A stretch of DNA of 64,000 nucleotides from Amoebophrya sp. A120 (Eukaryota > Protista > Dinoflagellata): contig CAJINV010000002.1 of assembly GCA_905178155.1 (NCBI GenBank), positions 10,648,709-10,712,708 of the forward strand, read 5' to 3'. Each line of letters begins with the position of its first letter. Position 1 is the first letter of the stretch. Shown piece by piece: positions 10,283 through 57,079 of the stretch. Under the pieces are notes generated by a model. That model saw only the letters and a list, made by a program, of their open reading frames with translations. It did not search any database and was not told the origin of the DNA. The translations under genes were made by a program, and so were the position numbers.

Positions 10283-11628
10283 AAGCAATACAGTCGTTTT
10301 TGAAACCAGAAACAGGGTAAGAACTCTCAAATATCAACTTGATGTCGCTACTCAAACTGCCTGGAGGTTTATCTACTTGATATTCAACAGGAATCGATGA
10401 AAAACTGAAAATGGTCAAAAAGTAGCTCAACTTTGCTGCGGTCGCGATCGATACTTTCAATTTCAGAAAGCAAAGCTCAAGTAAAATTTTGGCTCTTACA
10501 CTACATCAAATGTGCGAAACGTATAAGTATCGAGTTACTTTCTACTCCGGCGAGGTCGACAAATTCAGGTTGTTTTTGTCATCAAATAATTTCAGAAACG
10601 TCTAGGAAACTTTACTCTTTTCTTGATCTTACTTATCTTCAAAAAGTGGTGCCTGTCCTGGCTAATATTCCCTGGAAGCGCAACTTCCAACATGATAGTC
10701 GATCCGATATGACTCTGTTTTTGTTCTTCTGGTGGATCATACGTTAGCTGCAAGTTTGATCGTCAAGACTTCACAAACCTTTCGTGCAAGCTTGTGGAAC
10801 ACTGGCACGCAAAAGCGTCACACTGTGAATTTGGCGCAGATGCAAGATAATTGGACGGCCGCCAGACGATGAATCAGTTAGCAGCCGCCGAGGTTCGTTT
10901 ACCGTTTTTTCAATATTCAGAAAACAAAAAGAACGTCCAACAAAAAAATCAATGTGCCAAAGAAATCCCGTCGCCAACTCGCGAAGGCCTGCAAGTCCAA
11001 AATGTTGTTTTCACCAGACAAATTAATATTTCACACCCGTCGAAACCCCTGCTCAACACTGAGCTAAGCGCGTTTTTTTCATGAGAATAGATATCTAGGT
11101 TTACATTTTCTTTTGTGTCGTAGCGCACACCCCCCAATTTCAGAATTCCAGTCATGCTCATCTTGTTCTCGTGCTCATCCGCGGCATGTACAATAAATGT
11201 CGTAAGAAAATCATACACCATGATTGATATGATTCTTTTTCCAAACTCGTACATACAGTTGTCGTTTGCTTGGTCATGATGCTTCTAAAAAAACAGTCTA
11301 GCATAACGCGTTTACATCGCTGTCCGCTTTGTTTCCAGTGTTCTGTCACCGCCGCGGAAATAATAAGGCCGCGAAATTACTAGTACATTGCTAGAAAATT
11401 AGTTGTATTTTTTTTGATACACGCTCATGTTTTCTTATTAGCGCTGCAGCCACAGAAGAGCATATGATATCGTACAGGTTACTGATGTTGTTAAAAAACC
11501 AACAGTCGCTACATCCCCCAGCAGGCCTAAGCTCTTTTGTGTACAGATCGTTCTTTCCTTCGTTTCGCTTGCATACATCAACCAAATGAAACATCAGAAC
11601 GAAGAGCTCGAAAAAAATAAAAAGATCT

Positions 11629-12932
11629 TCACAGATATGAGGGTATGATCTCACGGTGCTGCCCCTCGAGTTCCACTACTCGGTCCGCCGGCTGTTCCTG
11701 CGTTACTGCCGCGGTAAATTCCGAGGGACCGCCCGGCGTCGAGGAAACTGTCGAAGGTGAGCCTGGGCCGTCCGCCGGCGGAAGGACCAGAGCCGGCTGG
11801 TCTAGTCGCAGCTCCTGCAATTGCCGTGCCGCTTCGTTGATGCCAAAGTCCAGATCGGCTGGCGCTGTTGATCCCAAGCGCACACTGCAAGGCATCGAGT
11901 TCGGAGACTCTGTGCGTTGCGGTGTTTCGCACCCGCTGCTAGAACACGAGTCGTCCTCGTCCACGTCAGCGGGCTGGATTTCAGTTGCGTTGTTTTCTTC
12001 TTCTGTTTCCAAAGCTCACAAAAAAACGTGACTTTCTGTTTCTTCTTATGAAAAAAAAAAAAAAATAGAGTATTCTTCGTGGGGATCTTCTACCAAGAAG
12101 ATACTATGCGCTCCTTTCAAAAAGAACGCTCGGAGTCGAAATCGTCTATCTAATAATGTTAATATCAAAAGAAAGTTATAGATACCACAATCCCTGTATC
12201 CCTGCTGTTCCGGATTTCGAGCTCTTGCGCAACGTTGGCAAACTCGATCGCTGCCTGCTCCGGTGTGAATATCACGGCATGCCGCCTGGCGGGCAGCCTC
12301 CTGTTTTGCAGCCGAGACTGCTGTATGGATTGCAAAAATGTCTGGGTCTGGAACAAAGCAACTTGTCATGCTAAATCAGAATCATGTAAAAATCTGTGTT
12401 GCATGATTCCCAAAAGCTGTCCACTTTTGACCTAATCGAGAGGCACTTTCTCATGCAGCATAGGCATGATAGAGCTCTCACAGAATCTGTCATGCTATGT
12501 CCTATATACCAGACCTCATGGGTTATGGAAAACCTGCATGACAAACCTGCATTCTTCCAGACCCAGACATTTTTACATTTGATATGCTGCACACGCTCTT
12601 GCACCGCAGCGTCCGGGTTCGGCGCGTCCACGCCCTCGTGGCTGCTCTTCTATGGATTGCAAAAATGTCTGGATCTGGAACATTGCAACTTGTCATGCTG
12701 TCTTTGGATTCCAAAAAAATCTGTATTGCGTGACCAGCAACAGGAGTCCAGTTTGTGTATACGCGGAGAGGGAATTTCTCATGCGGAATAGGCATCAGGA
12801 AGCCCTCTAAAAATCTGTGATGCTAAATCATGCATTACATGTGTCATGGATCATACACAATATGCATCACAAACCCCGGAATCTTCCAGACCCAGACATT
12901 TTTGCAATCCATATCTTCCGGGAGCACACCAT
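11629..12932 (-). CDS. Hypothetical protein interrupted by two family A elements
   Basis: After removing A3 and A2: MVCSRK|SSHEGVDAPNPDAAVQERVQ|QSRLQNRRLPARRHAVIFTPEQAAIEFANVAQELEIRN; the join to the acidic ORF 11629-12012 is unresolved. Confidence 0.45.
12324..12584. mobile_element. Family A element, copy A2 (261 bp), internal orientation opposite to A1
   Basis: TATGGATTGCAAAAATGTCTGGGTCTGGAA ... TTCCAGACCCAGACATTTTTACATTTGATA; TSD TGCTG at 12319-12323 and 12585-12589. Confidence 0.95.
12651..12913. mobile_element. Family A element, copy A3 (263 bp)
   Basis: TATGGATTGCAAAAATGTCTGGATCTGGAA ... TTCCAGACCCAGACATTTTTGCAATCCATA; TSD TCTTC at 12646-12650 and 12914-12918. Confidence 0.95.
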
Positions 12933-14221
12933 CTAGGTGGAACAAAGGAGCTGGTAATCAATGTAGCAACGGCAGAAGACAGGGAAAACAACCCCCTCTG
13001 ATTTCACAAGTGTTAATGTAGATGTAGGTGTACACAAGAAAGACCCCAAAAAATTAAAATGCTCTCTAGTACTGTAAAAAGAACTGCGGCAGGAGCCCAA
13101 AGCTACTTGCACTTACCTTGAATTTGACGAAAAAAGCTTATAAACACAAACCCCACAAAAAAAAAACAAACTCCTGCTTTTGCTACATTTTGATAGGTGA
13201 GAAGTTTCGGCTCGCGGACGAAAAATCGATTCGCGGGTTCAATTTGACAAACCAAAGAATGGGAAAAAAGGAGAGGGAGTCCTGTCATGTTTTCGATTTT
13301 GCAAAAATGTTTTGCCACCAAAAGAAGAAGTTTTGTTTTGCCAAAAAAGGTCTTCGAACTTCTGGAGCAACAGTATCATTATTTTCACGACTCAAAATAG
13401 ACCGCGCACGAGGAACACAGATTGGACGATTTTCTCGGTTCTTTTACACGTGTAGGGTGAAAATGCACTCAAACAGTTACAGCAGCGCACGTGGAAACGG
13501 ACGGTTTAATGCTAGTACGTAACTTCTACCGCTTCCCGCAATTTTAATTTTCCCAACAGTCTCATGGAACAAGAGGTCGTCACTAGTTCAGCAAGCTCAT
13601 TGAAACATGCATATCAGGCGAGGAGGACATCAATCTGATTATACAAATTCATCAGTCAGCTCAGCGTATTTTGCATACGCTCAACTGGGACTTCTCCGCG
13701 CTTTATATTGCGAAAACGTTTTGCTCGCAGATTTGCTTTTTTACTCAAGCACCTCCGAAAAATCAAACGCTTAGAAATAGAATTGCAAAACAAGTATCAG
13801 CTTTGCTTCTTTACACTAGGCTGCACTGGTGTGACAACAGATACTAGCGCGTATCAGAGGATGGAAAAGGAAACGGAAGGTAAACCTTCCTAGATGTTGA
13901 CAAGCACCTAAAAAAAAATGAGGTACAGTGTAACTACGCCGCCCATCGGTACGGTGGAGGACTTTCTCTCAGACAAAGCCGGTCACGAGAACTCCTAGTA
14001 AAACTAAAATCGATACAACAGTGGTCCTGAACTCGACCGCCGGCCTGACTGTGAGAAGAAATGTTGCAAGAAATAAACTGGTACTGGAACAGCAGCTGCA
14101 ATTTTTTATACGATACTTTTATAAAGAGTCAAAATTCCTTCGACAGTCGCATACTTTATTTCCCTTGGCGAGGTTTAAGATCAGCATCTATTTCATCATG
14201 ACATTTTTTACTGGGCGATGT

Positions 14222-16283
14222 TCACTTCTGTGCCAGTGGCACGTTCCGGGACAGCAGGAGAAAATGGCACGGTCGTGCGGTAGAACCGGGCTCTGGATCC
14301 AGCACGTCGTCGGACGAAATCGCACCGACCTATGTTTACATTGAATTTCTGTCCGTCGTGAAACGCCCCTCTCCTGCAATACTAGCAATTAATAGGCCTT
14401 GCAGACACAGACGCAACCAAGCAACAAAAAAATTTACAATCAAAAACAGCTCACCTGGACGTAGCCCATTTTTCCGAAGAACCCCTGCCCGGGTATGGGC
14501 CTTTTCAAATCCGGGTAGCTCTTTGCGTGCGCCTCAATCTCCTTGGAGGTAATACGGCCGTTCGGATCGCGCTTGAAGGTCTCCACATCACTGGAGATGC
14601 CGTTCGCGGGGGCATTCTTGTCGTGGTTACTCGGCGACAAGACCGTCGAGCTAGCTCCATTTTTGTTGGCCCCCGGGGAAGACGATGCAGCAGAGGTCTT
14701 CATCGAGGACGGCGTCGCTCCTGCCATGTCATTAGTAGAACTTTCCGTGCCTTTCTTGTTTCCACTCGCAGCTGCCGCGCCGGTCAACGGGGGTGGCGAC
14801 GGTGCGTTGCTTCCCACCGCAGCTGTCGCACCCGCTTGCGTCCAGGGGAGCGAGGTTTTGTTCTTCTTCTGGCCATTCGCCGGCGAGGATGGAGATTGTA
14901 ACAGTGTGTTGCTCGCTGTATTTGTCGTAGCAGCGCCAGCGGTGCTGCTGCTGCTACCACCGCCAGAACTAAAATTGTTGTTCCCCAATTTGTTCTTCGG
15001 GCTGCTCAGACCCAGCCCACCGCCGCCGATGGACAAATTGTTCTGCGTCGTCGTGGATCCGGGGGAGTGGATGGCGGGCAGTTGCAACGGTTTCTTTCCG
15101 TTGGTGGGTGCCGCGGAGGACGACGGGGACGTCAAACTGCTGCGATTTGCGGTGCTCCGCGGATCCGTCACCCCGAAATTCTCGTCCTTGCTGCCGGGCC
15201 GGGCCAAAAACAGGTCGCTGCGCAGCGAGCAGACCTCGAGCACCACGCGCCGCACCGACCGCTTGAGTGCCCAGTCGTAAGACGCCTGGAGGAGCAGGCT
15301 GCCGATGCCCTGACGCTGGTAACTCGGGTGCACGCCGTAGGGACTCAGGTCAATGCACTTGTCGCCGCCGAACTTGCGCAGCATCACGCGCACGGCCCCG
15401 ACAATGGTTTCCCTGCTCCCACCGGGCGTGGTCTGCCCCGGGGAACACGTGCCTGAAAATAAGGAAAGAAAGGCGTGCTACATTTGTACAAAAGCGCCTA
15501 TCTTATTCATAAATCTAAATCCACATCTACTTCCAATAAACAGTCATATCCTATTACCTCCACTGCCACTGCCAATGGAGGTGGTGGATTCGCTGTTGAG
15601 CAGTAATCGCCCATGCACCATGGTGTCACCGGCGGCTTCGTCGGTTTTATTCGAACTCGATCCAACAGTAACTGACTTCACGACACTGCCGATCGCGTTG
15701 GAAATGGATTTTACCACCGAAGACCCATTTGCGCCAGTAGAGGCCGTGGCAGACGACGAACCTGGTGTTTTTCTTGCAACGGAAATAAGTCAAATTTTGA
15801 ATCGATTTTTTTTTGCCATTTGCTTGAAGGTCAGTCAGGTGTTAAAAAAGCAACATAAATACGCATTTTCCTCACTTCAATACCGCTTTTTCCATTCGGA
15901 TCTGATTGATCGCTCTGCCGCCTTGGTCGCTTACGCTTTTCCGCCGCAACGAAGAAAACGCCGATATTCTCCTCCTGTCTCGCCAGCAAAATGTCGGACT
16001 GAACCTGCGGTTTTTTTGGATGCGCCCTGCCCTCATGCAAAATTATTGCTTTGCCTGAAATAGGTCCATTGATTTCTTCAACGAGAAACTGCAATCCCTC
16101 ACTAATTGCCAAACTTCGGCAATAATGCCCTAGTACCTGTTCGCTATTTTGATAGCGTGGTTGCAATCGAAAGCCTCGGTCAGAGTTTCCCATCTCTACC
16201 GCGTAGGCCGCATTCAGCACACTCAGCACTGCCTCCACATCTACGACGCGGGCCCTGCGCACGTAAATACTCCGCTCCTCCAT
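14222..16283 (-). CDS. GNAT-family N-acetyltransferase with long low-complexity insertions (multi-exon)
   Basis: IYVRRARVVDVEAVLSVLNAAY; acetyl-CoA motif A GVHPSYQRQGIGSLLL; VLEVCSLRSDL...FFGKMGY; last exon ...STARPCHFLLLSRNVPLAQK* (TGA 14224-14222). Confidence 0.8.
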
Positions 16284-17240
16284 GTTGAGATCTTGTCTGC
16301 GCCCTGCAATGAGGCAGCGAGGGCTCTTCGTTTTCTCTTCTTGACGTTGATAGTGGATCACAAAATTATACCTGGACGCCAACAAAGCAAGAATCAAAAA
16401 CCAACTCAGATTGAGCAGCTCTCCGGGAGTGACTTCGCCATAAACTCTCGAAGTAGCCCACATTACTTCATGCACAAACAAGTGGCCCTGGCGCTGGCCG
16501 ACCACATCTCTACAATTCTCCTCCGCTCGGGCCATATTTTGTTGTACTGAAGCAGAAGAAGTGGAAGACACGAAGAAAAAGAAACGGGCTTGCAGAGAGA
16601 ACAAGCATTTTTCAGTGACAACATCAAAGCGAAACCACTGCGACGCGGAATGCATGCCCATCGTCGATTTTCGTATTGTAATTGTTGTTTGACATGTTGC
16701 TGTGCTCGTAGCCGTGTAGTACATTCGTTTCCTGCTACAAGCGATGTCAAAAGGTTTGTGGGCTTCTTTCACTCAAAAGGAAACGGGATCGTTTCCTCAA
16801 GAGAAAAAAGCGGGGTCGGGACGACCGGATTAGTGGGGGGACTTTCTTGATATGAGATGATCCAAGTTCTGTCGAAACTTGGGAATATCTCATATCGATA
16901 TGTATCCACCTTCAGAATACAAGAGCGAAGAACGAACGAATAAAGCTAGCTACTCTGGGTAAAACGTCGGGTGATCATCGGAAAAACCGAGCATTGCGAT
17001 CGGTTTCCCCTCTTCGTCAAGTCGATGTCCTCGAAGCTTCTGCTTCAATACTGGAAAACAAAAAACTCATGACTTGGGTCGTCGTGTGTAAAAACTGTAA
17101 ACTGGAATTCGTCAGGTGGTCAGTACACAGATATCGTCGAAGGAAGTACTTAAACCACATATCATCGATGTCAACATCTGAAGAGACTTCAAAGCAAGCA
17201 GTCGCCCATTTGTAATTGTATGTAACCCTACATCAATGCC

Positions 17241-20200
17241 TTACTGCGGCGCTTCTTCCTCGCGGTAAATCGCGAGGTCATACCCTCCTGGCTGCATGCG
17301 GTAGTGGGAGAAAACCCTCTTCTCGCTGGAAAACCAACCGCTGTAGTGCCACTCGACGCGGACGAACTTCTTCGCCAAGTCGTACTTCAAAACGGTGCCG
17401 AACGGACAGCTCCAGTGCTCGTCCTCGTACCGCCAGTGGAGGCCCGGGCGCACCTTCATCCCCTCGTGCACGTTCGCGACGGTGACGCGGCGCTCGTTAT
17501 CAAATGCAAAAGTGTCTGGGTCTGCAAGAGTGCGCGACTTGTCATGCAGCTTTTCCATGACCCATGAGGCCTCGAATGCAGGATCTAGCATGACAGATTC
17601 TGTGCGATCTCTCTCATGTCTATCCTGCATGAGAAACTCCCTTCCGACTTGGTCAAAACTGGGCGACTTTTGGTAATCATGCAACACAGATTTTTGCATG
17701 CTTCAGATTTAGCATGACAAGTTGCATTCTTCCAGACCCAGACATTTTTACATTTGATACTCGTTCTTCAGGTACGATTCCGCCCACTGCTTGTCCAACG
17801 GCGCGGCGTCCGGCTCGGTGCGGAGGTGCACGACGCCGAAGCTGTCGACCAGGGCCGTCGGGGGCAGTTGGTTCATCCCGACGTTCCCGGAGGACGGCGA
17901 CGCAGCGACGCAGCCATAATTTCCCCGGTTTTTACTACTTTCATCCAGGTCGCGTACGGTTTGCACGTCGAAGTCCATCTCGGTGACGCCGAGCGAGTTG
18001 CGCGGCTGCCACGCGGCCATGTCGTTCTCCGAGTCCTTCTCGTTTTTCGCGCTCAAACCGAAAACCGCGTTGTGCAGCATGTCATGCCGCTCCCGCTTTT
18101 CCACTTCGCTGCGACGCGACGACGCTTTTCCGTTCTTGCCGCTCGCCTTCTTGGTACTAGGAGGGTTCTTCTTGTTCCTCTCCTCGCTGAATGACGCAGC
18201 ACTCATCGTTTGCAGATGATCTTCGTGCGATAAACTTTTTTCCGCCAGATCATGCTCCGCGTCGGACAACGAGTCCACACTCTCCATTTGCGCCGGATGA
18301 TGATTTGCGCTGCTATTTTTCTTTTTGTTTGCTTCTGGGTAGGTAAATTCGTCTTGCTTTTCCTGCCGTTGCCCCGCAACCGCCCTTTTGTTCTTCACGA
18401 GCAAGCCCGCCTCCTGCGCTGCCATGCCGTGCGGGAGCTCCACCGGCACGCGGACCTTCTGCGCAATCACGAGCTTTTCGTTCATGGGGTCCTGGACGTA
18501 GACCACGGTTTCCCGGAATTTCTCCGTCGATTTCCCGCCGTCGTTGGGAAGGTCCTGGAACTGCTCACCGCCTACCGCGCCGGTGCAAACCTGGTCCTCG
18601 GGGACCGCGCTCAGCCCGGAATCCAGCCCCTGCTCCTTCAACCGGGCCTGCTGCTCTGCACGCTGCCGGGCCGCCATCTGGTCGACCTGATGTTGTAAAA
18701 GTTGAACGAGTTCATTGATATTGGATACTAGGTTGGTACTGTGGTCGCGTGAGAGAATTGATCCGATGAAAGGACGCTAGTAGATCGAAAAAAATCCTAT
18801 TATACTCACTCGTATCAGAAACTACAAACTATTTCCTACTCAAAAATCTATACCAGCACGCGCTCTAGTAATTTCCGCACACGCACCAAGTTTTCCATGG
18901 GCTCTGCGCCACTCTCTAGCCCTTCCGGAAGGTACACGTTGACCGGGCACCCCTGTTGGGGGATCTCATGCAAGATCCGCTCTTTCAAATGCGCGTACAG
19001 CGGGTCCTCCGGGTTCATGTTCCGGTCCTTGTAGACCGATGCGGCGACGATCTGCTTGCTGTTGCGGATCTGTTCGAAGATCATGAAGGCGAGGTTCCGA
19101 AAAGCGGCGTTCACCAGCCACTCGGGACAACCGCTCGAAACGTGCGGCGCCAGGTTGATCACGCACTGCAGGTAGCAGGCCTTTTTCGTGGGCGACCGCG
19201 TGTCCATCGGGGTCAGAAACATGAAGCTGTTGTCCAAGTACGCCCGCTGGCTGCCGTCGTACTCCTTTTCGTTCTCTGCGGAGTAGTCGCTGGACCGGGT
19301 CAAAATCTCCCGTTCCTCCTTCGGCCCGACGTTCTCCATGTGCAGGATGACCTGCTTTACCTCCTTTTTGGCGTCTTCCTTGTTCTCCGGAGCCGCCATC
19401 ACGTCGTAGCCCCGCACGCGAAAGCAGACCTTCCGCCAGGCGAACGGAAAGGGCAGCTTCAGCAGCATGCGAACCACGAAGTTGGATTTCGATTTTCGCT
19501 CCAAAACTTCGGATTTGACCAACCCCAACCCCATGAAGCTCGGGCACCACTCCTTCCACAGATCCGCCTCGTTTAGAAGCGACAACAGAGAGAAAAGATC
19601 CAAGTCGCACTGCCCCTCGATGGCAAAGGTGTACACCCGCGTGTCCTCCTGTTTCGGGTCCTGAAACACCATGTCGGTCCGCATGGCCGCGCGGATACCG
19701 TCGGTTTCGCGGATGATGCGCCACTTGGAGACGGGCTTGAAGTCCGGCTTCGGCTGCCGCCTTGCAACTGCGGGGGAAATCAGGTCCACGCTGGTCTTGT
19801 CGCTCATGTTGTCCAGCGTCAGTCCGTCCGAATACGCGACGGAATCGGACTGGAGGTCGTTCGCGGTCACCTCGTGGTGCCCCATGCTGCCCTGCGGCAA
19901 CACCGGCGAGAAGTCGTTGCGGTTGTGGGTTTTCCCGAAATCGATCACTTCCTCGTCGGAAAGCGAGTCGAAGATATCGGATGCATTTTCATCTGGCGCA
20001 CCATTCTCTTCTTCCGCTTCGTAGCTGCCGAGACTGCCATGATCAAGGTCCTCGTCCTCTTGTGCGAGGACCCGCTCCAAGTCACCCGGCCGCCGCACGG
20101 ATTTCCTCCCGGGCGCGTCCTCCAGCCCAATCTGCACGGACTTGCGCGTGTTGCTTTGCGGCGCGTCCTGCAGCGCGTCCGGTTTCCGCAAGGGCGGCGG

Positions 20201-21325
20201 CGGCGACTTGCGCTTCACGACCACTGCGGGTTTTGATGGCTGCTGCACCACCGGGTTTGCCGCCTCCTCCGCCTTTTTCGCCTGGCGAATACGGCCCCGC
20301 TCGATCTGCGCGAGCGTCGACCGCACCTGGGACACGAGCTGGAACCGCTGGACGATCTCCTTGATCTGTGGGTCCTTGTTGTCCCTCTCTAGATATTCGG
20401 CGTTGAAGGTGCGGTCGAGTAAATAGCCCGCCACCATCAGCTGATCGTCTTCGAAGAACAATTTCTTCGCCTCGGCGATGGCTTCCTCGGGGGTCCGTAA
20501 CCGTTCCGGCTCCGGGAAAGGCAGCTTCTCGTTCGCCTCCGCATGCTCCACGCGCTGGCTGAGACGGTTGCAGGTCGCGTCAACCTTCGCTTTCATCAAT
20601 TTTTCAGAGAGGCGCGAACAGGTCGAGGACCTCCGACGTTCGGGTATGTTGGCGTTCCTGTCTACCACAACCGGGGCTCCCGATCCGTTTTCGTGTAGTT
20701 CATCATCGTCGGTGGACATAGTACTGCTTGGGCTTTCTTCTTCGTACTCCTCATCGCTGAGATTAACAGAAACCTCTCCGGCTGTCGTGGGGGTGGTCGT
20801 TCGGGAGATCGAGTCTCGTCGCTTGATGTCACTTGAAGATATAGTTTCGCCGTGGTTCGCAATTACCTCGTCAGATTCCGAGCCGGAACCCGCGGCGGTG
20901 TTGAATCTTTGTTTGTCGCTAGCGTCGCCATCGTGGTTGTCCACACTTTCTCGAAAAGTTACCGACTTGTTCGCTGTGCTACTCTTTCGGAGCGAGGAAT
21001 GCTTTTCTGCCAGGAGATCCACCGCCATTTTCCCGGACGGTACGGATTGTTCTTTCTCCTGGGCAGTCATCGCTTCAGATGGAGATACAGCGTTGTCCTC
21101 TCTCGCAGGCTCGTGCAAATTATATTGTTCCCCGGACGGGCGGTCTTCGAGCTGCTCAACAACAACTTCGGGTTCTATGTGTGGGGGCGGCGATTCCAGC
21201 TTTACTTCTTCGTCTGGAGAGACAGATTCCTGGATTTCCAGGTCGATATTAGCCATCTTACGGGCAGTATTACGCACCCGCTTTCCACCGGAGGTGGTCG
21301 TCGGGCCCTTCCGCCTTTCCGGCAT
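17241..21325 (-). CDS. START/SRPBCC-domain protein with a C-terminal MIB/HERC2-like domain
   Basis: START-like segment AIEGQCDLDLFSLLSLLNEADLWKEWCP...LKLPFPFAWR; predicted phase-0 GT-AG intron 18687-18853 joins LERVL|VDQMAARQ; removing A4 gives LKNE|RRVTVANVHEGMKVRPGLHWRYEDE...GTV...VRVEW...YRMQPGGYDL. Confidence 0.7.
17498..17759. mobile_element. Family A element, copy A4 (262 bp)
   Basis: TATCAAATGCAAAAGTGTCTGGGTCTGCAAGA ... TCTTCCAGACCCAGACATTTTTACATTTGATA; TSD CTCGT at 17493-17497 and 17760-17764. Confidence 0.95.
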
Positions 21326-22570
21326 TCTGGTGTGGGGTTTGGGTTCTTACCGAGAAAAAAAGTAGAAGAGTAAAAGTAGTTCAAGAAGGAAAACCAAAAC
21401 ACGTAAAGTTGTAAATGTAAAGGTTTTTCGTTCGTTTTGTTTCTTCGCGATGGATTCAAAAAGGACAGATACAAATACTGAAATGGTCTTCCGAAGAGGC
21501 GTGTTAATGTATTGGATGATCTTCGAAGTAAACAATCAGATGATGAACCAGAGTAATTTTTCGACTCTTCAACCCTGATTGATAATTATTTGTGTACGGT
21601 CTAAACTAAAAACTTGTAAATCTCAAAATCAACGGGTTTTTGACTTCTTCTAGGTTCCTCGATTGTGAACTGGGAATGATTTCGAGCTTTATTTGGATCT
21701 ACTTTGACACACTTTTTTATGGGACCGAGCGCGAGCTGCGCGAAGGAAATGATCGGATATGGATGGATCTCTGCCATTTCTCATTTTTCGTGAAACCGAG
21801 GAATGCAGACTCCAGTAAGGTCGACTACTCAGGATCCAACCGATTTCTCGACTGTCGCTATTCGAATCTTGACACTAATTTTTCATGGTAGTATCATGTA
21901 AGAAGTACCCTTGTTCATCAACATACAGTGTCTGGCTAGCTTGACCGACCAGTGCTCCGATAAATCATGAAACACTCAAATTGTGCACCTCATCATGGAC
22001 CAGGCTCGCGACGATCCTTGTTCCGAAAAGTTTAGTACTTGTGTGCAAAGACCGCTTCGTGTGTGGCAAGATGGTGCAACTAACTTGAAGCGAAAGATTA
22101 AAATCTAAGTCTTTCACATGATTGGCGCGTGATAGTGTTTCAGACAGGCAATCGTGGCAATCGCGATATACATCCTAGCAACTGTATATCATTGCTCATG
22201 CGAGAATTCAATCAGCTACGAGTGTACTGCGCAACTCAGCCACAAAACCGAAATTCATTTTCAAACATCGTGGGGAGGTACGTCCCCGCACTTTGTGCTT
22301 CAAAACGCGGACGCATTGACTGTGAGAATACATAGCACTAGTCTCCTACGATCTCTAGTGCCACGTAGTGACCAGAGTCACCCCAGGAGCAACAGCATTA
22401 CTCAAAACCTTCAACTACTTAGAGAAGATCCACAACATGCGTTTGTACCCGTGAGCGGCGCGAAAAAAAATCTGTGGGTACACTATGACAGACATGGACA
22501 CAAAAATATTGGCGCAATCAAGTAAGTAGGCTGTCCTGCCTTGTAAAAAATCATGAAATTCCGAATAATA

Positions 22571-25046
22571 TCACGAGTCGTCTACTTCCAGCGGTTCCGC
22601 AAACGGTACCTTCGTAATTTCGAGGTTATTGTATCCCCCGCAACACAATATCTGCTCCGGTAGCTCGTCATCATCCTTGCCCTCGACCAGCAGAGCGTAT
22701 TCGGTTTGCGCGGCAGGAAGCTTGCCCAACACCGTTGGTATTGCGGTGCGCATATCGCAAGGAAAAATCCCCCCTCCCCATATCAAAACGAAGTTTCTGA
22801 TGCTGGATTTGCGTACACAAATGAGATTTGTCTTGCTGGCGAGGACTGCAGGCCCATACTAAGCCTGAGTCTACAGGTTTTGGCCTACGCGCTTAGCATG
22901 ACAGACGTCGACGCTGTAGCTAAAACAGCATGACAAACCTCCTGTAGAATGCGGCGGAGCTTGGGGAGTTGCGTTCATGCAACACAGAGACGATTTGTGA
23001 CCTCAAATCAGCAACGCAAATTTTCGGCAACATACCTTTTCAATATGGGGAGGGGAAATTTTTCCATTTGATATCGCAACGCGTAGCCCCAGGTTCGCAC
23101 GTCGTAGTCTATCTCGAGTATCTATCAAATGTAAAAATGTCTGGGTCTGGAAGAATGCAACTTGTAATGCTGTCTGCGATTCTAAAAGTATCTGTGTTGC
23201 ATGAGCAGCAAAAGGAGTCAGTTCTTGGCACGCGGAGAGGCAATTTCTCATGCGTAATTAGCATCAAGAAGCTCTCAAAAAATCTGTGATGCTAGCACCA
23301 GCATCACAGACCTCACGGGTCATGCAAAATGTGCATGACAAGTCCCGACTCTTCCAGACCCAGACACTTTTGCAATCCATAGTATCCGGGGCGCATGCAC
23401 CCTGTTGAACCGCGCGCTGTAGGAAAGGAGCACGGGCTTACCTGATATTGCGTAGTTCAGGTCATACACTGCAGCTCAATTGCGCTTGATATGATTGAGC
23501 ATTTCAGGACGCATGAGTAGAGAGAAAACATTCGTGAAAATCTACTAAGAGAGTATAGTACGACGAAACTCTATGCATCCGCAACACCCTTAAAAAGCCT
23601 GCGTTTGAGTTTCAACATACCGTTATAGCTCTTGAACAGGTTTGGCACGTTCATTTCGGCCACGTTCCTGACTTGCACGATTTTTTTCAGCGCCAGCCCC
23701 TTTTTCTCGCTCCGGCCCTGATCCACGATTCGTTTCCACAGCCGCAGCTGTGGCGTCCAGGTGCCAGTGGAGAGGAGTCGGATGGCCTCATCGGATAGGA
23801 TGAAGTAGCCCACGAGGTTGAACCCCAAGTCGTCTACCGGATGAGAGCTGAACAGCCCGCCAGACTTGAACGGTACCTCCCCGTGCTCCACTAAGATTTC
23901 CGGGATGCCCCACTCCTCCTTGTAGCCCGCCTTGCGTATCCCAGAGAAAAAAGCTGGCAGGGCATATTTGTAATGCAAAAATAAATACACACAAAAATTT
24001 GTCATGGGTGGCCCCATAGCATGCTGTTTCGGATATGCAATAGAGATTTTTTTGTGTATTTATTTTTGCATTACAAATGTGTCCTGCCAGCTTTTTTCTG
24101 TGTGATATTGCGCGGAAACTTGCAGTCCCAGTTGCTCACGATCTCGTGTATCCTGCCGTTTTTCGCCTGCACCACGTCCCCGCCGATCAAGTCGTACAGG
24201 GCGGGCTTCGAAAAAATCTTCTCCCCGGACTGCTTATACCCGACGTTGCGTACCTTGAACCTCGTGGCCGAGGTCTCCATGTTCAGCTCTTTCGGCAACG
24301 AGTCAAACACGGAGAACCACGGGATTTCCGCTGCGAGATGTTGAGTAGAGATGAGGTGCGCAATGCGATTTTTCACCCGTAAAAAATGGAAGCCTTCTGG
24401 TGTGTGCTGCTGCAAGAAAAAAAAATCGCAGCCATGTAGACGTGTCGTGTTCTCGTGTAGTATACGGAAGACAGATTCTCGAAAGAAAAAGCTGATCTGT
24501 GGAAGTACCTCCTGGCGGAAAAGCCCTCCCGGGACTTTGCGAGCTCCAACTCATTTGCCTTGAGAGTGTCATGCTCAGCACGGGCCGGGCTTCGGAAAAG
24601 TCGGACCGCACCGTTCTCATATCGTCCTCCGTGTCTATGGATAGCAAAATTTTCTCGTTCTGGCTCACGGCGCTCACTTCCGTTAGCGAACCGGTCAATC
24701 CGCGGGCGGCTGTATTTGGGAACCGGGTTCTTCAAGTAGAAGTTTTGTATAGTATGTGCACCGATAAAGGACCGACACAACCAACTACGTACAAAAATCG
24801 GGTAACTTTATTACGTTGGATTGTGACTTTGTCTGTGCTTGTGAACAAATCTTGTTTAGAATAAATCAGCCGGCTGAAAGAATCTTAAAAACGTTTTGCA
24901 CGACTGGGTGGGTTTTCGCTGCTGGAGACCGGTCCGCTCGCATTCGTATCCTCCTGCATTTTGCTTTCCGCCTCTAGTGGTGCCTGCTGTTTCTTCGGCG
25001 ACTTAGAACCGCTCGCAGCGCCCCAGGGCCCGCAACACACGCCCAT
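22571..25046 (-). CDS. EDR2 C-terminal (DUF1336) domain protein with a probable acylated N-terminus; three inverted-repeat insertions plus GT-AG introns
   Basis: MGVCCG start; FKVRNVGYKQSGEKIFSKPALYDLIGGD; FPR|KAGYKEEW (D removed); SYNG|KPVLL (GT-AG intron 23442-23620); PRI|LEIDYDVRTWGYALR|TAIPTVLGKL...LLVEGKDDDELPEQIL (A5 and C removed). Confidence 0.8.
22753..23073. mobile_element. Family C inverted-repeat element (321 bp)
   Basis: TIR TATCGCAAGGAAAAATCCCCCCTCCCCATAT / ATATGGGGAGGGGAAATTTTTCCATTTGATA; TSD GCGCA (22748-22752) vs TCGCA (23074-23078), one mismatch. Confidence 0.9.
23123..23381. mobile_element. Family A element, copy A5 (259 bp)
   Basis: TATCAAATGTAAAAATGTCTGGGTCTGGAAGA ... 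TCTTCCAGACCCAGACACTTTTGCAATCCATA; TSD GTATC at 23118-23122 and 23382-23386. Confidence 0.95.
23937..24107. mobile_element. Family D inverted-repeat element (171 bp, ~60-bp TIRs)
   Basis: TATCCCAGAGAAAAAAGCTGGCAGGGCATATTTGTAATGCAAAAATAAATACAC... mirrored by ...GTGTATTTATTTTTGCATTACAAATGTGTCCTGCCAGCTTTTTTCTGTGTGATA; TSD TTGCG at 23932-23936 and 24108-24112. Confidence 0.93.
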
Positions 25047-25879
25047 CTTGTAGTATTTCCGCTGCGCGGGAACTACCGAGGCAGAAGGCGTCGAGGACGA
25101 AGACGACGCTTTCGACTCTCGATTGCTCGTCAAAAGCGCACCCGGCGGCTTCTGCTCGCTCTGCCTCTCGTCGTCGCGTAAGAGTCCTTGAATTTTGTCG
25201 TCTGATGTTGAGGTGGACGACAAACCAGCGCAATGGGAAGACTGATCCTGATGTTCCCGTGCCATTTAGTAGAGGCTCCTCATACAGCTTGTGCTATACA
25301 GTCTTGACACCACCGGCCAAAGCAAAACACGAAGTAGATTCAACAACCGCAGCAATCAAGACGAGAAAGGCCTCGAAAATGTTGTTGTACAATTACCCAA
25401 CCAATTCGATGTCGTCACTACTGACATCTTCATCAGAGGACGATTCTACAGGTGTTGCGCCGCGGACTATTGTGCAGTCTCATTCTCACGTTGCTGGCCG
25501 CTTTGCGTTTACGATTGACCCTTGTTTAAAAAGTTAGAATTGACCATACCACGCTCCCAGTGACATTTCACAGCGCTCAAATTGGTACTTTCTTTGGGCA
25601 CAAAGAAATCAATGGACACAGGCCGTCTGGTCCCCTCGCGGAACAGAAAAAGTACGCATTGATTCCAAGCAGCATCGCGCTTGTCTGTCCTGTAGTAGCT
25701 CACGACCACGATGGCCCACTCCCGTCAGGGCAACATTCGTGATAGTCCAGTAGAGAAAAAGAGAAACAAATGAATCTGTGTGCATGAAAAGCAGAAAAAA
25801 CACTCATTTCTACACTCAGCAACTTTTCAGTCTTTCGTCCAGGGATCAAAGCAGGCTCTCCACCACAATTACTTACTTA

Positions 25880-28104
25880 CTACACATAACTCCCAAACAC
25901 CCCACAGTCGTACTTTTCCTTCCACGGATTGGGTGGCTCCGTTATGAACGCCCGGCGCTTTGTCAGGGCAACTTCGCCGGCAAACGAGGAGGATGGCATG
26001 TTGTCGAGTATCACGGGCCCGAAGTGTCCCTGGCGAAAAAAACGCAGGAACCAGCGCACGCCCGCCAGCAAATCGACCGACGCTCCCCGCTCCAGCATAT
26101 CCGGCTGCATGTGCTCTGCGAGATGTTTGACGCACTCGTCAATACTGTTCGTGGGCTGCTTACTCGGCAGATCCAGGGCTTTCACGTACTGGAACTGGCG
26201 CATCTTGTTCAACTTAAAGAGGCAGTAGTCCGCGAGGTACCACTCGCCAACTAAGTGGTCCGGCATGACACCAAGCAAGCACAGATTGGTTTGCTTTTCC
26301 AAATTTTCCACGTTCTTCAGAAGCATCATTCCGGGCGTGTCCACGCAGTGGATCATGGGCTTGCGCGAAATCAAAAACGTGGACTGCCCCTTGCAGTGGC
26401 GCGTGGTTTATCGATTGTAAAAATGTCTGGGTCTGGAAACTTGTGATGCTGTTTGTGCATGACACAGGAGGTCTAGCATGCAAGTCCTAGCAACACAGGT
26501 TTTGAGCAGGTTAGGCGATGCCGAATCCGCATGACAAGTTCCCTCTTTTGGTGGCAAGAAGTGAGCAACTTTTGCGGGGGTCCATGCATGACAGGTTTTT
26601 TTCTGTTCTCAAATACGCATTAGAAATTTACATGTTTCCAGACCCAGACATTTTTACATTTGATATGGTTCCGGGCAGCATGTTGGTCTTCGCCTCATTC
26701 ATCTATTACAGTGAAAAGGGCCTCCCACCCCAAGGTTGCAAAAATTTGTGATGCGAAGTTTCCAAATGAAAACTTTTTGTCATGCATGAAAGGAGTATGA
26801 AGCTTTCTGATGCATATTCTAGTCGTGGTTCGCATCGCTTACATGACAAGCACCGCTCTTGCTGGGATCTTTTGCAATACAAATTTTTGCTATTCACGAT
26901 CGGAAATCTGTGATGCTGATACATGCAAGAGGCCGAATGTTTCATTTGGAAAGGTTTGCAATACAAATACTTTCAAGTTCGGGGGTGGGGGCATTTTTCA
27001 TTGTAATATCATCTTCACGTCCTTCATGATATCCGGGTCCACCTTGTGACCGAGCGTGAACGCGTACTGCTTCAACCCGTTGATGATGGTCGATTTCCCG
27101 ACGTTCGGCAGCCCCACGACCATCATCCACAACCCCACCGTGTTGTGCTTCACGTCGCAGTTCTCCACGATGAACTCCCGGATCTTGCCGGTGTTGATTT
27201 TTTCCGACGCGGAGATCAGCAGGGCGGGCTTCCCCAGCTCCCGCATCACGCCCAGAATCCGCCGCGCGTCCTTCGCGGAAATCAGGTCGACCTTGTTGAA
27301 AATCGTCAGCTTTTTCAGGCGTTTGGGCTGCTGCACCTGCGACAGGCTGTTCCCATTGTACAGCGCGGACCCGATGTTGGACTGCGAGATGGTGCTGTCC
27401 TTAAAGCCTAACTCCTCCAACAATTCCCCCTGGCACGAGGAAAAGGGCGCGCGGGCGTCGCGGACCTCCAGGATCAAGTTGATCCCCCGCTCCACGCGCT
27501 TCTTCAAATCCACCTTCGCTTTGCTCATGTGCCCCAGCCACCAGTGCGGGTAAAAGTCGAAGGCAAACTTGTCCCGCGCAACAAACTCCGGGAACGGGTC
27601 GGGGAACGCGGAGGGACGGACAGCGGAGGACGTCGTGTTTGCCGCGTTTTGATGTGTAGTATTTTCTCGTCCTCGAGGATCAGTCGAGCTACTAGTACTC
27701 CCTCTCGACGAGGTGGACGACGATGCACTCGCATCGGCATCCCGGTGGTCCTGCGCACTTTGATCACGCTCAACGTCTCTGTGCTGTCGAGCCGAGAAGC
27801 CCTCCGCTGAGGTCGTAGTCGACTGCTGCTTTTCCCGCACCCTCGCGATCCAGTCCTCCTCTGGCATGTTGGGCTGGATCCGCTCGAACGGGTCATCCGC
27901 ATGATGTTCTTTCCTGGCATTGTTTTTTGTTCCGTTTCTATCTGCAGAGTGAGTGGAGGTGCTCGCCGCTGTTTTCAAAGTTCTGGATGGTGGCGTCAAG
28001 TGACACGTCGGATGGACAAAGGTCGCGCCGGCGCGACCTCTTTGGCACCAGTGATGCAATAGTAAATTGCTCCGGGCCCGAGCTTTTGCAGAGCTGCTGT
28101 GCAT
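25880..28104 (-). CDS. MTG1: Circularly permuted ribosome-assembly GTPase of the YlqF/RbgA/MTG1 family, probably mitochondrial
   Basis: WWLGHMSKA, LEVRDARAPFSS, G4 NKVD, G1 VVGLPNVGKSTIIN, G3 DTPG; G2 PGTTR appears only after removing B2 and A6 (VKM|NEAKTNMLPGT|TRHCKGQSTFLISRKPMIHCVDTPG); basic, acid-free N-terminus. Confidence 0.85.
26409..26665. mobile_element. Family A element, copy A6 (257 bp)
   Basis: TATCGATTGTAAAAATGTCTGGGTCTGGAAAC ... GTTTCCAGACCCAGACATTTTTACATTTGATA; TSD TGGTT at 26404-26408 and 26666-26670. Confidence 0.95.
26704..27008. mobile_element. Family B element, copy B2 (305 bp)
   Basis: TATTACAGTGAAAAGGGCCTCCCACCCC ... GGGGTGGGGGCATTTTTCATTGTAATA; TSD TCATC at 26699-26703 and 27009-27013; same orientation as B1. 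Confidence 0.95.
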
Positions 28105-28493
28105 ACTTTAACTTTTGCTTTACTTGTTCGATGGTGAGAAAAATAGCGGGATTTTCACGATCACATCTCAGAGAGACGAAGGATGGATCTTCACAAGGTG
28201 CCAGTTATTGATCATTGAAAGTGAATGCGTTTCACTTTTTCCTGGGAAGATCTGTTTTCTGTGCAGAGAGCGGAGGCGGCGCGTCAGGTTCCGATGATCC
28301 AGTCCTTGGTACCGATTGCGCCTGCACTCTCAACGCTACACCGGCGAGGCGTGAGACGACGAACAAAAGCGACCTACAGGAGGTGCTCGAAGAACGCGTA
28401 TACATGTAAGCATCCGAAGCAAACTGTGTTGATTCTTTCAAGTTACTTGGTAAGCTAAGCTCCACAAACACACGCAAGTCAATTGAAGAAATG

Positions 28494-49339: not shown

Positions 49340-52115
49340 TTAATACCTGCTCCCGTAGGTTGAGATTTCTACAGCACTGCTTCTGTGCATGCTTGCATCG
49401 CCATCCGCTACACGCTTCCATGCGTAAGTACAGCAGCTCTTTTCTGCAACTTGAATGCGAGGGGCGCAAAAGCATGTTAAGTGCACATGCCATACACAGT
49501 TGTGCGTGTCCAGAAACTCCTCCAGGCCGATGGTCTCCCCATTCGCGGTCTGGGAGTGGACCAAGATTCGGCTGTTTTCTCGGTGATCGACCACGATTTC
49601 CCGAAAACGGTGCTTGGTCGAAAAGCCGCCGTTGCTCCCCAGAAACTTCATCTTGAACAACACCACTCCGCACGCGAACCAGTCCACTTTCCGGACGTCG
49701 ATCTTTGTCTGCTCCCGCACCTTCTTCCAGTGCAGCTCCGGCGGTCGATACTCGCGGGTCCCGAGCGGAATGCGGTCCGACCGCACCACTGCCTCATCGC
49801 CGAAGGGCAAGCTGTATGCTACGCAAAAGTACATCGCAGTTTTGGTTCTGCATCGATTACGAGTTTTAGCGCTCAGCCTTTGTAGAGCACAGTAAATTCC
49901 AATTATTTTTCACCATGTTGATTGTCATGCATTTTGAAGTCCGTGTTTTTGTATGGGAAAAATCCTTTGGACTTGCGATACAACTTCTACCTCTGCCAAG
50001 CATAAGCTGATGCCAAAGTCGATGATCTTCAGCAAGAAGGGTGGTTTCGCCGACCGGGCGTGCGAGAATATCTTCCAGTCGTGCTCGTGTTGCTGCGCGC
50101 ACGTCGCCGCGCTCGGTACGAATTCGGAGTTGTTGTTCAGCTTGTAACTCGTTTCCGCGGTACAAGTAGTAGCGATATTGCTTTTACTCGCCGTCGTATG
50201 GCTGGCACTCGTCGATCGGGGTGGCTCAGAAAATTCGGTTTGTTGTTCCTTCGAAAACCGGATGAGCTCCTCAATCATACGATTCTTTTCCCAGTAAACC
50301 TGTGGCACCTCCGCAAGCATCAGGTTCTCGAGCTTCAGATCCAGATGCGCGCACTATCAAGAACGAGACTAGTACACTCGTGACCACCTATGTATCTCCG
50401 TCGCATATTTCCTGTCAAAAGTACTTATCATTTTGGACAGAAATTCTGCATGAGTTCTCCAACAGCAACAACATAATCACGACAAACGTTTTCAGCGACA
50501 TAAGTTCTTGCGTCTGTCTTTGCATGATCGAAAGTAGACAAGCGTTATTTTCATCTGATGAAGCATTCATAGTCACGAGCGTCCTCATCTCCCAGGATAC
50601 AACCTTCAACGCGTCGTGGAGGTGATGCACTCCCCGGACAAGCTGGTTGAACAGTTCGCGCACGATGCTTTCCCCTGGGCCGTTGTTGGTCACAAGACTG
50701 GACTCTGATTGCTTTCTTTTCAGTCCTCTCTTCTGCCGCGTTTCGTCTGCTTTCGCAACCATCCTGAAGTCACCACTACTTCCAGCAACGCCGGGCTTGC
50801 CAGAATTTTCGCTGCCGTGCAGTTGGCTCTGGAAGAAAAGTCTATCCAAGTCTCGCACCTTGCACCGCTGCAGGATCCCGTCGAAGAAGACACTCAGGTC
50901 AAACTTCAGCAAACCCAGCGCGAGGTAGCGCTGTGAGCGGTGATCGAAGCTTCCGTAAAACGTCACGACGTTGGGATGCGGCCGTTGCTGGATCTTGCGC
51001 AACCGTATCCCGGGGGAGGACAAAACCCGTCTGAGTCGTTGGACAAAGAAACTGATTCTAGCCTTAATGCGCATCTTTCGCTTTTTTTGCAGAACATAGT
51101 CGCGATATGGCAGCTTATTTGCAAGCAGCTAGGGAGACTGGCTGTGAGGATTACACTGTGGCTGCAAAGTCCATTCAGACCTTCCCATGCAGATATGTAC
51201 GCGAAGCAGTGCAAGTAGTTCGAGTTCCTTGCTCCAACGCCCCGATCTCTATTTCTTTGCTGTCGCTTGCATAAGGATCTCCAGGTTCCTCTGTTCTAGC
51301 CGCTCGCTTTGCTGGGCGCGCGCGTCTACGGCTTGGGAAATGCCGGGGCTACGACTAGGTTGCAAATTTCGCGCTCCGGGCCTTTCTGCGGCTGCCCCGG
51401 CTGTCTTGTTGTGGCGATTTTCGGTTTGCAGTGCGGAAAGGATTTGCAGAACCACTCCGAAGCACCCGTCCTCGCAACTTGCTCGTGCCGATGGCACTCC
51501 GGCGGCCGAGGCGACAACATTTTCGATTACGGCACCCGCGGGGGCCGCGCTTTGTTCTTGCGCTGGTGCGGCTCGTGCGTCGCCTGCGATCCGTGTCGAA
51601 CCGCGCTCAGCTTCTATGGGTGCATTCCTTGTGGGCGAGAGCGGCTTTTCTTCGCCGGTGATCGCTCGCTGCGTGACCTTGATCGCAACCTCTTCAAAGT
51701 ACTTGTAGAAGTTTTTGCTTTGTCCGAGTAAGCTCGCGGGGCAGCTGGCGCGACGCGAGGTTCTGGCGGTCGGGCAGGGGCTGTGGCATCGGTGTTCCGG
51801 TCGACTGCGTTCCCGATGAATTTTTCGGGGGGTAGAAGAGGGTAACTCATGCAGAGGACGGTGGAAGCTCGCGAGGTCTTGGACCCCGAGCGTCCGGGAG
51901 GTCGCGTCCGATCCGCGCCGCCGCGTTGCAAGCCGCCGAAAGCCCAACAACACCTCAGCAAAGCCTCCTTCGCCGAGCTTCTTCCGGGCCAAGTTGCAAA
52001 ACGGTGGTGTTGTTGACGTCAGCAGAAGCGCCTTCGAAACCCCCCGCGTCTCGGGGCAAATCTTCAAGGCTGCTTCGGCCTCCCGAGCGGGTGGGAGCCG
52101 AGAGAGGTGTGCCAT
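49340..52115 (-). CDS. Ser/Thr protein kinase with large inter-subdomain insertions (multi-exon)
   Basis: Ordered motifs LGEGGFAEV, VAIKV, HPNVVTFYGSF, LFNQLVRGVHHLH, AHLDLKLENLML, LKIIDFG, GTREYRPPE, KVDWFACGVVLFKM. Confidence 0.85.
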
Positions 52116-53833
52116 GTTCGCGCCCGGGTCTACCGTCCGCTCTCTCCGCGCATCCGTTTTTTGTGACCAAGCCACGAGCTGCTGCGCAAAGTGTAATTAG
52201 ATTCTGGCCGATTTGAAAAGATTGGCGCCAACGCGCCACGTGTACAATTGGCCTCGTCGAGGCAAAGATATCGCACCCTACGCACCGATATCTTGGAATC
52301 TTAACCTACGCTCGACCGGCGGCACGCGCTCGCTGTACTTTGCGGGCGTGATCGTTCGGGTAGCATGCCTCGGCTGCGCCATCCATTCTCTCTCGGAATA
52401 ACTGCGTCGAAAATGTCTCTCCGCTCATTCAGCTCCGAACGCTGATCCGCCGAGTGGCCTCGAACTAGGAATGATATCATTGCGGCTCCTTGTGCGGCTG
52501 GGGAGGGGGCACGTCGAGCGCCCACCACCCTCTCCAGTAGCAAAGCACGAAAACAACAAGGAACGAGTGCGGTTTATGCTGGTCGGGCGGCGCCGGTCTT
52601 TCCGGCGGGAAGGGGGGCGCGGTACCCACTCGATAGTCCGGGCTGACTGCAGGCTCTCGGAGTCCCATATCCCCGAGTCCTTTTCTACACCCTAGCAAAA
52701 CTGAGCGCGCCAGGCGCGGCGGCACCCGCCGGCATGGAGGCACTTAGATGCGGGCACCCGCGGTTCGCGAAACCCCGAAGCGGGGTGCATCGCGCCTTCC
52801 TTGGCGCCCCCGGTCTACTCGCGCGCATGGGGTCGGGTAGGCCTTTTTAGGATCGGGGAGATGTTCTGAAGCACTTTCTGCGGGACCGGCCGCGTGCGTC
52901 GTCGCGCGGGATATGCCGTCTCCTTGTGGCGACTCTCGTCTCCGCGCGCGGGAGGCACGCTGCGCGCCCACGCGTTCGCCTCGTGGCGACTTCGAGCGCC
53001 GCCCTGTCCGCCGGCCGGCGGGGGGAGCCTGTCCGGGGGAGGGGGGGGGAAGGGTTCTCCGCACCCCGCCCCCCTTGCGCGGTGTTCGCGGCGTTTTTGT
53101 GCCTTTTCGCGGTGGCTTCCGGTGGTTCTTCCGCACCTGGGGCTACCCTATTAGGCTACTTAATGAGCGGTGATGGACCGCGGTCCCATTCCCCGGCACA
53201 GTCTTGATCTTGGGACCCCGTTTACAGATTTTGCCACAGATTTTGCCAGATATTCTAATGGGGTCCGACGTCTGAAAGCTACCCAGTAGCTTCTCTTGCT
53301 AATAAACAAATTCTCTTCTGATCAAGTATGTTTTCCAAAGAAAACACACTTAGTGCACCACGTAGAAAGGGTTCTTTTCTCAAAAAAGGAAGAACAACCT
53401 AGCAAAGTTCTCCTAGAAAGTGCGTACAGTGTGACTTTAACCACAAGGATTGCTTGTGAATTATCAGGGGTGAAGCGGAAGACTGAAACGAATCGCCTGG
53501 AAATGAACGCGAAAACGCCAAAATCGGAATGCCCTTCTGAAACGAATAACTTTTTTCAGAAATTCGAAACGTCGGACACCATGAAGTCCGACGCTTCGCA
53601 TTTCTGAAAAAAGTTATCCGTTTCGGCCGGGCTTCCGCGGGGCGAGTCGATTTGCAGTGCAGAATCGCACTGCAAATGGACTCGCAGCGACGCGTCTTGT
53701 CGGAGATGCAAATTCGCCCAGGAGGGCAGATCTGCGTCGCGTTTTCACCTTTTTTTAGTATTGGTTCAAATGGGGCCAATACTTTTCCGCAAGTACTGCC
53801 GGAGACAGTGGCCCCTCTGAGTGCCGGATTGCG

Positions 53834-53903
53834 AGTTGTTTCCCCAAAAGAACCAGTGGCTCTGGCAGTTGCCAGAGCCACTGGTTCTTTTGGGGAAACA
53901 ACT
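53834..53903. repeat. Perfect hairpin, 34-bp arms with a 2-nt loop
   Basis: AGTTGTTTCCCCAAAAGAACCAGTGGCTCTGGCA-GT-TGCCAGAGCCACTGGTTCTTTTGGGGAAACAACT. Confidence 0.95.
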
Positions 53904-54035
53904 GCCAGTCCTTTTAGGTGCCGGATCGAACAAGGCATTTCCGAGTAAAACTCGGAAACGCCTTCGATCCGGAACCTAAAGGAGCCAGGTAATACCACGC
54001 GCCCCCCAAGTGCAAACCTAGATCCCGCGCGAACA

Positions 54036-54900: not shown

Positions 54901-54905
54901 GTGTT

Positions 54906-56831: not shown

Positions 56832-57079
56832 ACTTACTCCATGCCGCCCGGATTTGTGGCGCGCGCGCCACAAATCTGCGCTGCGCGGCAAAGATTTGTG
56901 CTGCGAAGGAAGCAGGCCACCAAGAGCGCAAAATTGCAGCCCAAGCGCAACCGTTGCGCTTGAGCTGCAATTTTGCGAGGTCTTCTGCGGCAGAAGACCG
57001 GTTTTCTGGCGCGCACTTTTTTCAAAAAAAAAAAAACTGTCCAGGTTATCCGTTTCTGTTACCCGTTTCACCCTGTGTC

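Follow-up and report, generated by a model that had tools for sequence, protein, structure and literature searches.

More than 60% of the introns of Amoebophrya sp. A120 are non-canonical, and Farhat et al. (2021) left the mechanism of their removal open (PMC7789003; articles are cited here by PMC number). That paper defines introner elements by inverted repeats (8 to 20 nt) plus direct repeats of 3 to 5 nt, gives the A120 introner motif as TAT, seven variable bases and at least three A, and counts 1954 families. No transposase is reported for the A120 introners in its accessible text, and PMC12130899 credits several transposon classes; the same introner class is repeated in PMC12130899 and PMC11282704. 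Euglenid nonconventional introns resemble the elements described below in their non-canonical ends, end-joining terminal pairing and junction repeats, but they have a pyrimidine/purine junction consensus and leave as circles (PMC11282704), whereas the A120 elements show no junction preference. The MITE introners of Micromonas and Aureococcus are likewise non-autonomous inverted-repeat elements that make target duplications and become introns, and they have canonical splice motifs and insert preferentially in nucleosome linkers (PMC9860276, PMC7789003); the A120 elements, in contrast, have neither canonical sites nor a 10.5-bp gap period. The MITE-derived introns of Fritillaria borealis are similar in inverted repeats, duplications and non-canonical ends, but most read AG-AC or AG-AT and depend on an adapted spliceosome (PMC11282704), whereas the A120 elements have no dominant dinucleotide.

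We analyzed a window of 64,000 nt of the A120 genome that contains an MTG1/RbgA-family GTPase gene, read on the minus strand from ATG at 28104 to TAG at 25880 and interrupted by two elements, A6 and B2. The features of the locus, in window coordinates, are as follows.

25750..28157, minus strand: transcript-like contig of run X1, 1836 nt, the length predicted for the spliced form
27009..28104, minus strand: coding exon 1, with ATG at 28104, G4 and G1, inside the X1 contig piece 27009-28157; one of several equivalent registers
27297-27286, minus strand: G4 motif NKVD in exon 1, residue 270
27114-27091, minus strand: G1 motif GLPNVGKS in exon 1, residue 331
26704-27008, no strand assigned: element B2, 305 nt, with TAT…ATA terminal inverted repeats; leaves as a 310-nt intron with one duplicate
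26699..26703, no strand assigned: inner copy of the B2 duplication, TCATC on the plus strand; outer copy at 27009-27013
26666..26698, minus strand: 33-nt microexon that completes NEAKTNMLPGT, at positions 655-687 of the X1 record, between both contig pieces
26409-26665, no strand assigned: element A6, 257 nt, with terminal inverted repeats of about 30 bp and five relatives in the window; leaves as a 262-nt intron with one duplicate
26404..26408, no strand assigned: outer copy of the A6 duplication, TGGTT on the plus strand and AACCA in the sense direction; inner copy at 26666-26670
25880..26403, minus strand: coding exon 3, with the G3 motif DTPG at 26341-26330 (residue 398), the C-terminal domain and the stop codon TAG at 25882-25880

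Removing each element in silico together with one of its duplicates yielded a frame of 550 aa that reads KM-NEAKTNMLPGT-TRHCK across the two joints. The deposited A120 protein CAD7936374.1 (P0001), the only member of its cluster, is identical to this splice at all 550 residues, although it may itself derive from RNA data of the kind used below, such that independence cannot be assumed. It was also the best of the 54 protein matches to exon 1, among which there was no second A120 protein; the named matches were mitochondrial GTPase 1. The A25 ortholog, with 57% identity in the alignment, has LPGTTK at the same place. In the PDB, the best sequence match was MTG1 (mitochondrial ribosome-associated GTPase 1, E 2e-23), with PGITR aligned to PGTTR, followed by trypanosomatid-type Mtg1 entries and then RbgA. 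The best NCBIfam model was YlqF, at 110 bits against a cutoff of 208 that belongs to a bacterial equivalog and that three other eukaryotic proteins we scanned also failed to reach. By these comparisons, the closest characterized relative appears to be MTG1 and not another YlqF-family branch, and the predicted role of the protein is in mitochondrial large-subunit assembly. A mitochondrial genome was not found in A120, and 31 mitoribosomal proteins are already listed (PMC7789003); an intact, spliced MTG1 is compatible with a working mitochondrial ribosome.

Like the circularly permuted GTPases of the MTG1/RbgA (YlqF) family, the A120 protein carries G4 before G1-G2-G3, and since G2 of Bacillus subtilis RbgA is the G-x-T of Gly153-Thr155 (PMC6821245), the corresponding Gly375-Thr377 make Thr377 the G2 threonine here. 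PGxT is present in 32 of 52 parsable homologs, and the remaining 20 have, by eye, mostly AGxT. In GTPases generally, the G2 threonine is required for function. The A120 protein differs from MTG1/RbgA in a low-complexity N-terminal extension of about 170 aa and in a longer G1-G2 linker, the latter as in dinoflagellate and Babesia homologs. A preliminary description of this locus had placed A6 within PGT-TR, and the A6 duplication does cover the codons of Gly375-Thr376-Thr377 in the P-G-T-T-R of G2. Its reading of G1 (GLPNVGKS), G3 (DTPG) and G4 (NKVD) as intact also held, as did the distance of 38 nt between A6 and B2 (26665 to 26704). The segment between them does encode NEAKTNMLPGT as described, and the net exon is 33 nt (11 codons), not 38.

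A6 and B2 both have the anatomy of miniature inverted-repeat transposable elements: they are short (257 and 305 nt), their terminal 20 bases are complementary at 18 positions in A6 and 16 in B2, and each is flanked by an exact target duplication of fixed length, 5 bp; the interval 26404-27013 takes in both outer duplicates. All four ends read TAT-N7-AAA. The window holds six A-type and two B-type copies, the relative of B2 lying at 1362-1670. With an inverted repeat of at least 15/20 plus a perfect 5-bp duplication as the criterion, the real window had 8 inverted repeats listed, of which 7 start with TAT; when it was block-shuffled five times, the counts were 0, 0, 1, 0 and 0. We rejected a composite A plus B transposon, each element having its own duplication and the middle being coding. 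An Rfam scan gave a single match at chance level (E 0.96), and a search of viral contigs with the A terminus pattern gave 0 matches. Retaining one element, or leaving both duplicates, brings a stop within 36 to 58 residues of G1. Three more element pairs lie in the window, at 1051-1670, 12324-12913 and 22753-23381, with their members 48, 66 and 49 nt apart, respectively; the first is an A plus B arrangement like A6/B2, and between the members of the other two, RNA confirms exons of 61 and 42 nt.

Joints from 26403 to 26666 (262 nt) and from 26698 to 27009 (310 nt) were present in contigs of all four RNA-like runs, which represent one sample of one study and whose RNA status was guessed, none being RNA on record. 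The X1 contig spans 25750-26403 and 27009-28157 with 33 letters between them, the joints falling at positions 654/688 as predicted. These runs hold about 67% of the words of the locus, which is the share expected with the elements absent. Over 11500-28300, the 15 joints listed of 16 comprised 8 elements and 7 CT..AC introns; all eight elements called beforehand in this interval were skipped, each as the element plus 5, with weaker candidates kept outside the count (one of 10/20 inside a canonical intron and others without a duplication). The contigs also skip ordinary GT-AG introns and thus behave as spliced mRNA, although contigs are blind to efficiency, rare isoforms and strand. No joint that skips the microexon, a form that would be in frame, was among the 15 listed of 16, in contigs that drop rare forms. 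The raw-read RNA runs X8 and X9 had zero depth over the MTG1 exons. Separately, 79 raw X8 reads matched only the A terminus (26636-26666) and continued into one other sequence on both sides; with X8 lacking reads on MTG1, we read them as coming from an element that RNA retains at a different locus or in a different strain. At position 13129, an extra A in the X1 and X4 contigs, absent from X2 and X3, is possibly a homopolymer slip.

Because transcript-like contigs lack A6 and B2, each together with exactly one of its duplicates, the two elements are likely introns. We conclude that A6 and B2 are working introns, and we put the probability of this explanation as a whole at about 0.85; the four runs and the deposited 550-aa protein thereby bear out the earlier preference for functional introns over gene-killing MITEs. 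Next to no weight goes to the gene being a pseudogene killed by two MITEs, with the transcript coming from an uninterrupted paralog or allele: canonical splice sites are indeed absent, but the joined contigs equal the window exons with 0 other letters in all four runs, the exon-1 search returned a single A120 match in a cluster of one, and the same removal occurs at six other elements in 11500-28300. The DNA-like run X5 adds flat exon depth and exons without variant letters. It bears as well on precise DNA excision in the expressing life stage, as for ciliate internal eliminated sequences, in which case RNA would copy a clean gene. X5 passes unbroken from exon into each of the two elements at a depth of 43 to 45 and shows no exon-exon joint among the 15 listed of 40, and element sequence from other loci is present in the RNA-like runs. 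We consider such excision very improbable, even though the DNA-transposon anatomy and the loss of exactly one duplicate would suit it and the DNA and RNA-like runs may stem from different life stages.

The working introns A6 and B2 are members of a published class, the introner elements of Farhat et al. (2021), so that the locus is already known in kind, with its gene model deposited. Every feature of introners that we tested was present: RNA-supported non-GT-AG ends, inverted repeat, direct repeat, TAT motif and genomic repetition. The inverted repeat of A6, at about 30 nt, exceeds the 8-to-20-nt range of PMC7789003, from whose introners the elements show no difference in kind; the legend of its supplement shows 5-bp direct repeats. 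The locus is thus one clean example of the class. It is also a test case for how introns without fixed boundary letters are removed, combining two different elements, a 33-nt exon, a frameshift upon error and a peptide that can be scored. The G2 position emphasized in the preliminary description contributes little: both introns are 1 mod 3 in length, and any removal error frameshifts; all eight tested elements are removed alike. That description took the need for single-base precision as its best internal evidence for introns, and such precision is borne out for the lengths removed (262 and 310 nt), which alone are fixed to the base; the position of the cut slides over 5 to 6 equivalent registers.

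None of these registers gives A6 or B2 canonical U2 or U12 ends (GT/GC-AG or AT-AC): those of A6 are AA-TA, AC-AA, CC-AA, CA-AC, AT-CC and TA-CA, and B2 reaches AT-AG at best. A GT/GC-AG register was possible in 0 of the 8 RNA-confirmed elements and in 6 of 95 other elements, compared with 4 of 95 on the antisense reading. There was no clear base preference in the duplication among 95 oriented elements (of 224), where orientation by reading frame is noisy (minus for 9 of the 11 window elements, plus for the 12324/12651 pair). An A directly before TAT in the sense direction was considered as a splice signal and rejected: 8 of 10 elements in the window have it, but in the larger set the count falls to 30 of 95. 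At 22753-23073, the two duplicates differ in their last sense base and RNA keeps the downstream one, so that this intron starts at least 1 base before TAT, outside the inverted repeat.

A6 is oriented opposite to the elements at 12324, 12651 and 23123; all are on minus-strand transcripts and all are removed, which shows removal of a single element family in either orientation. This argument does not use the gene at 17498, the strand of which a family scan did not confirm. In the wider loci, the two orientations were counted at 18 versus 12 with one reference and 16 versus 12 with the other. We found no mention of the absence of any GT/GC-AG register or of a lack of base preference in the duplication in the accessible parts of the literature searched, and none of removal in both orientations in the accessible text of PMC7789003 and PMC12130899; figures, data sets, Huff 2016 or Roy 2023 may hold the latter.

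We extended the analysis with a 28-letter terminus pattern, which retrieved at least 148 loci (L001-L148), all on JACKZZ01 contigs and about 80 with long flanks. At one of them, the encoded protein is 95 to 100% identical to an A120 protein in three pieces and is broken at the same two places; the sample thus comes from elsewhere in the same genome, or in one very close to it, and does not represent an independent lineage. In 81 A-family elements picked by their ends alone, with no duplication filter, the duplication was exactly 5 bp in 74 and 5 bp with one mismatch in 4, with 0 at 4 or 6 to 9 bp, whereas direct repeats are called variable in PMC7789003. Upon removal of the element plus 5, an open frame of at least 150 nt on both sides was obtained at 129 of 190 sites, compared with 93 to 103 of 190 for frame-shifting lengths and 128 of 190 for the in-frame lengths 2 and 8. 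The lengths of elements in L001-L148 cluster at about 150, 210, 260 and 310 nt, in steps of about 50 nt.

We also evaluated how the two elements might fold. The locus folds as two separate hairpins (z = -6.1); pairing of the own ends of A6 and B2 was calculated at -35.5 and -43.8 kcal/mol, compared with -4.8 kcal/mol for the pairing that would skip the exon, and the ends of A6 pair poorly with those of B2. Any inverted repeat would be expected to fold stably, which is no proof that the RNA adopts this fold, and covariation was nil (term +0.42; two-sided change in 6 of 49 pairs). In the same-family pair 12651/12324, the outer ends are complementary at 20/20 positions and pair at -53.1, as strongly as or more strongly than the own ends (-50.5 and -39.7), and yet the exon between them is kept in all four runs. 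Energy alone thus cannot be what decides the pairing; the kept exon would be explained if the RNA folds while it is being transcribed.

Combining these observations, we propose the following course of events. Each element very probably arrived by DNA transposition, a staggered cut of 5 nt giving the duplication. In the pre-mRNA, each would probably fold on its own ends as it is made, with the duplicates meeting at the foot of the stem and the 33-nt exon standing between two stems. Two cuts in the same register inside the duplicates, followed by joining of the exons, would then give an identical mRNA whatever the register, and we infer that the terminal hairpin, rather than GT-AG letters, positions both cuts. 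As for the catalyst, a remodeled spliceosome lacking U1 has about even odds. A spliceosome-independent nuclease plus ligase that reads the stem foot and cuts out the same introns, as suspected for euglenid introns, is a serious alternative that we place a little lower. It would account for the lack of a dinucleotide rule and of a base preference in the duplication, for removal in both orientations, and for YTRAY in the last 60 nt lacking a sense bias (45 of 95 sense versus 39 of 95 antisense). The snRNA inventory can be read both ways, U1 snRNA not having been detected in A120 but U2, U4, U5, U6 and nearly all spliceosomal proteins being reported (PMC7789003). Against a separate nuclease, the same transcripts also have ordinary GT-AG introns spliced out, and the symmetric ends provide an invariant ATA plus a 3' U-run in either orientation, which a spliceosome could use.

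Finally, we looked into the spacing of the elements. In the window, 4 of the 10 gaps between 11 elements were 38 to 66 nt (P value = 1e-5 for the window and 4e-4 for 1-28300, with a threshold set after inspection of the data). Across 81 loci of at least 2 kb, 70 of 156 distinct gaps were 25 to 125 nt and 1 was under 25 nt; in a strict set, the corresponding counts were 41 of 86 and 0. The rate of the next element was 6.3 per kb at 50 to 75 nt, compared with 0.7 to 0.9 at 150 to 1500 nt (gaps counted from both ends), and 75 short gaps were observed where uniform placement yielded 21 on average and at most 35 (overlapping loci being double-counted in both). These figures carry caveats: very short gaps may be lost where the assembly is fragmented, non-exonic DNA is part of the null, and old elements that escape detection make gaps longer. 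Local self-copying of pairs was rejected, median identity being 0.51 between close and 0.50 between distant neighbors; identity of at least 0.8 was seen in 3 of 78 close and 1 of 66 distant neighbors, and close neighbors mostly belong to different families. Hot genes were not supported, as short gaps on the two sides of an element occur independently (24 of 50 versus 26 of 49), and helical phasing was rejected, the best period of 11.2 being equaled by 55% of jitter controls.

The excess of short gaps may reflect insertion bias or selection for spliceable exon sizes. We regard it as possible, but on balance somewhat doubtful as a joint claim, that splicing in A120 can follow a route that is indifferent to junction letters and to orientation, measures its two cuts from the stem foot and may operate without the spliceosome, and that new elements land preferentially 25 to 125 nt from an element of any family. 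If true, such landing would mass-produce microexons like the 33-nt exon of the G2 loop. Three regularities restrict the mechanisms that are possible, namely the constant 5-bp length of the duplication, the removal of elements in either orientation and the peak in spacing, and existing data would allow each to be checked across the genome. No mention of the 25-to-125-nt spacing was found in the accessible text of PMC7789003 and PMC12130899, and figures, data sets, Huff 2016 or Roy 2023 may hold it.

The elements are unevenly distributed along the window, with 10 of 11 TAT elements in the first 27.1 kb and one, plus several long uninterrupted frames, in 27300-64000. At 49815-50004, there is a more decayed TAT element (14/20, 5-bp duplication); taking it out opens a kinase-like minus-strand frame. 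The interval 53500-56900 is a different repeat region with three tandem copies of 289 nt and inverted repeats ending in AGTA(C/T)T; perfect hairpins lie at 53531-53632 and 53826-53911. A protein kinase frame (PF00069, E 3e-32) runs on the plus strand at 60333-61271 within a mostly minus-strand block, and a GNAT domain is encoded on the minus strand at 14443-15477.
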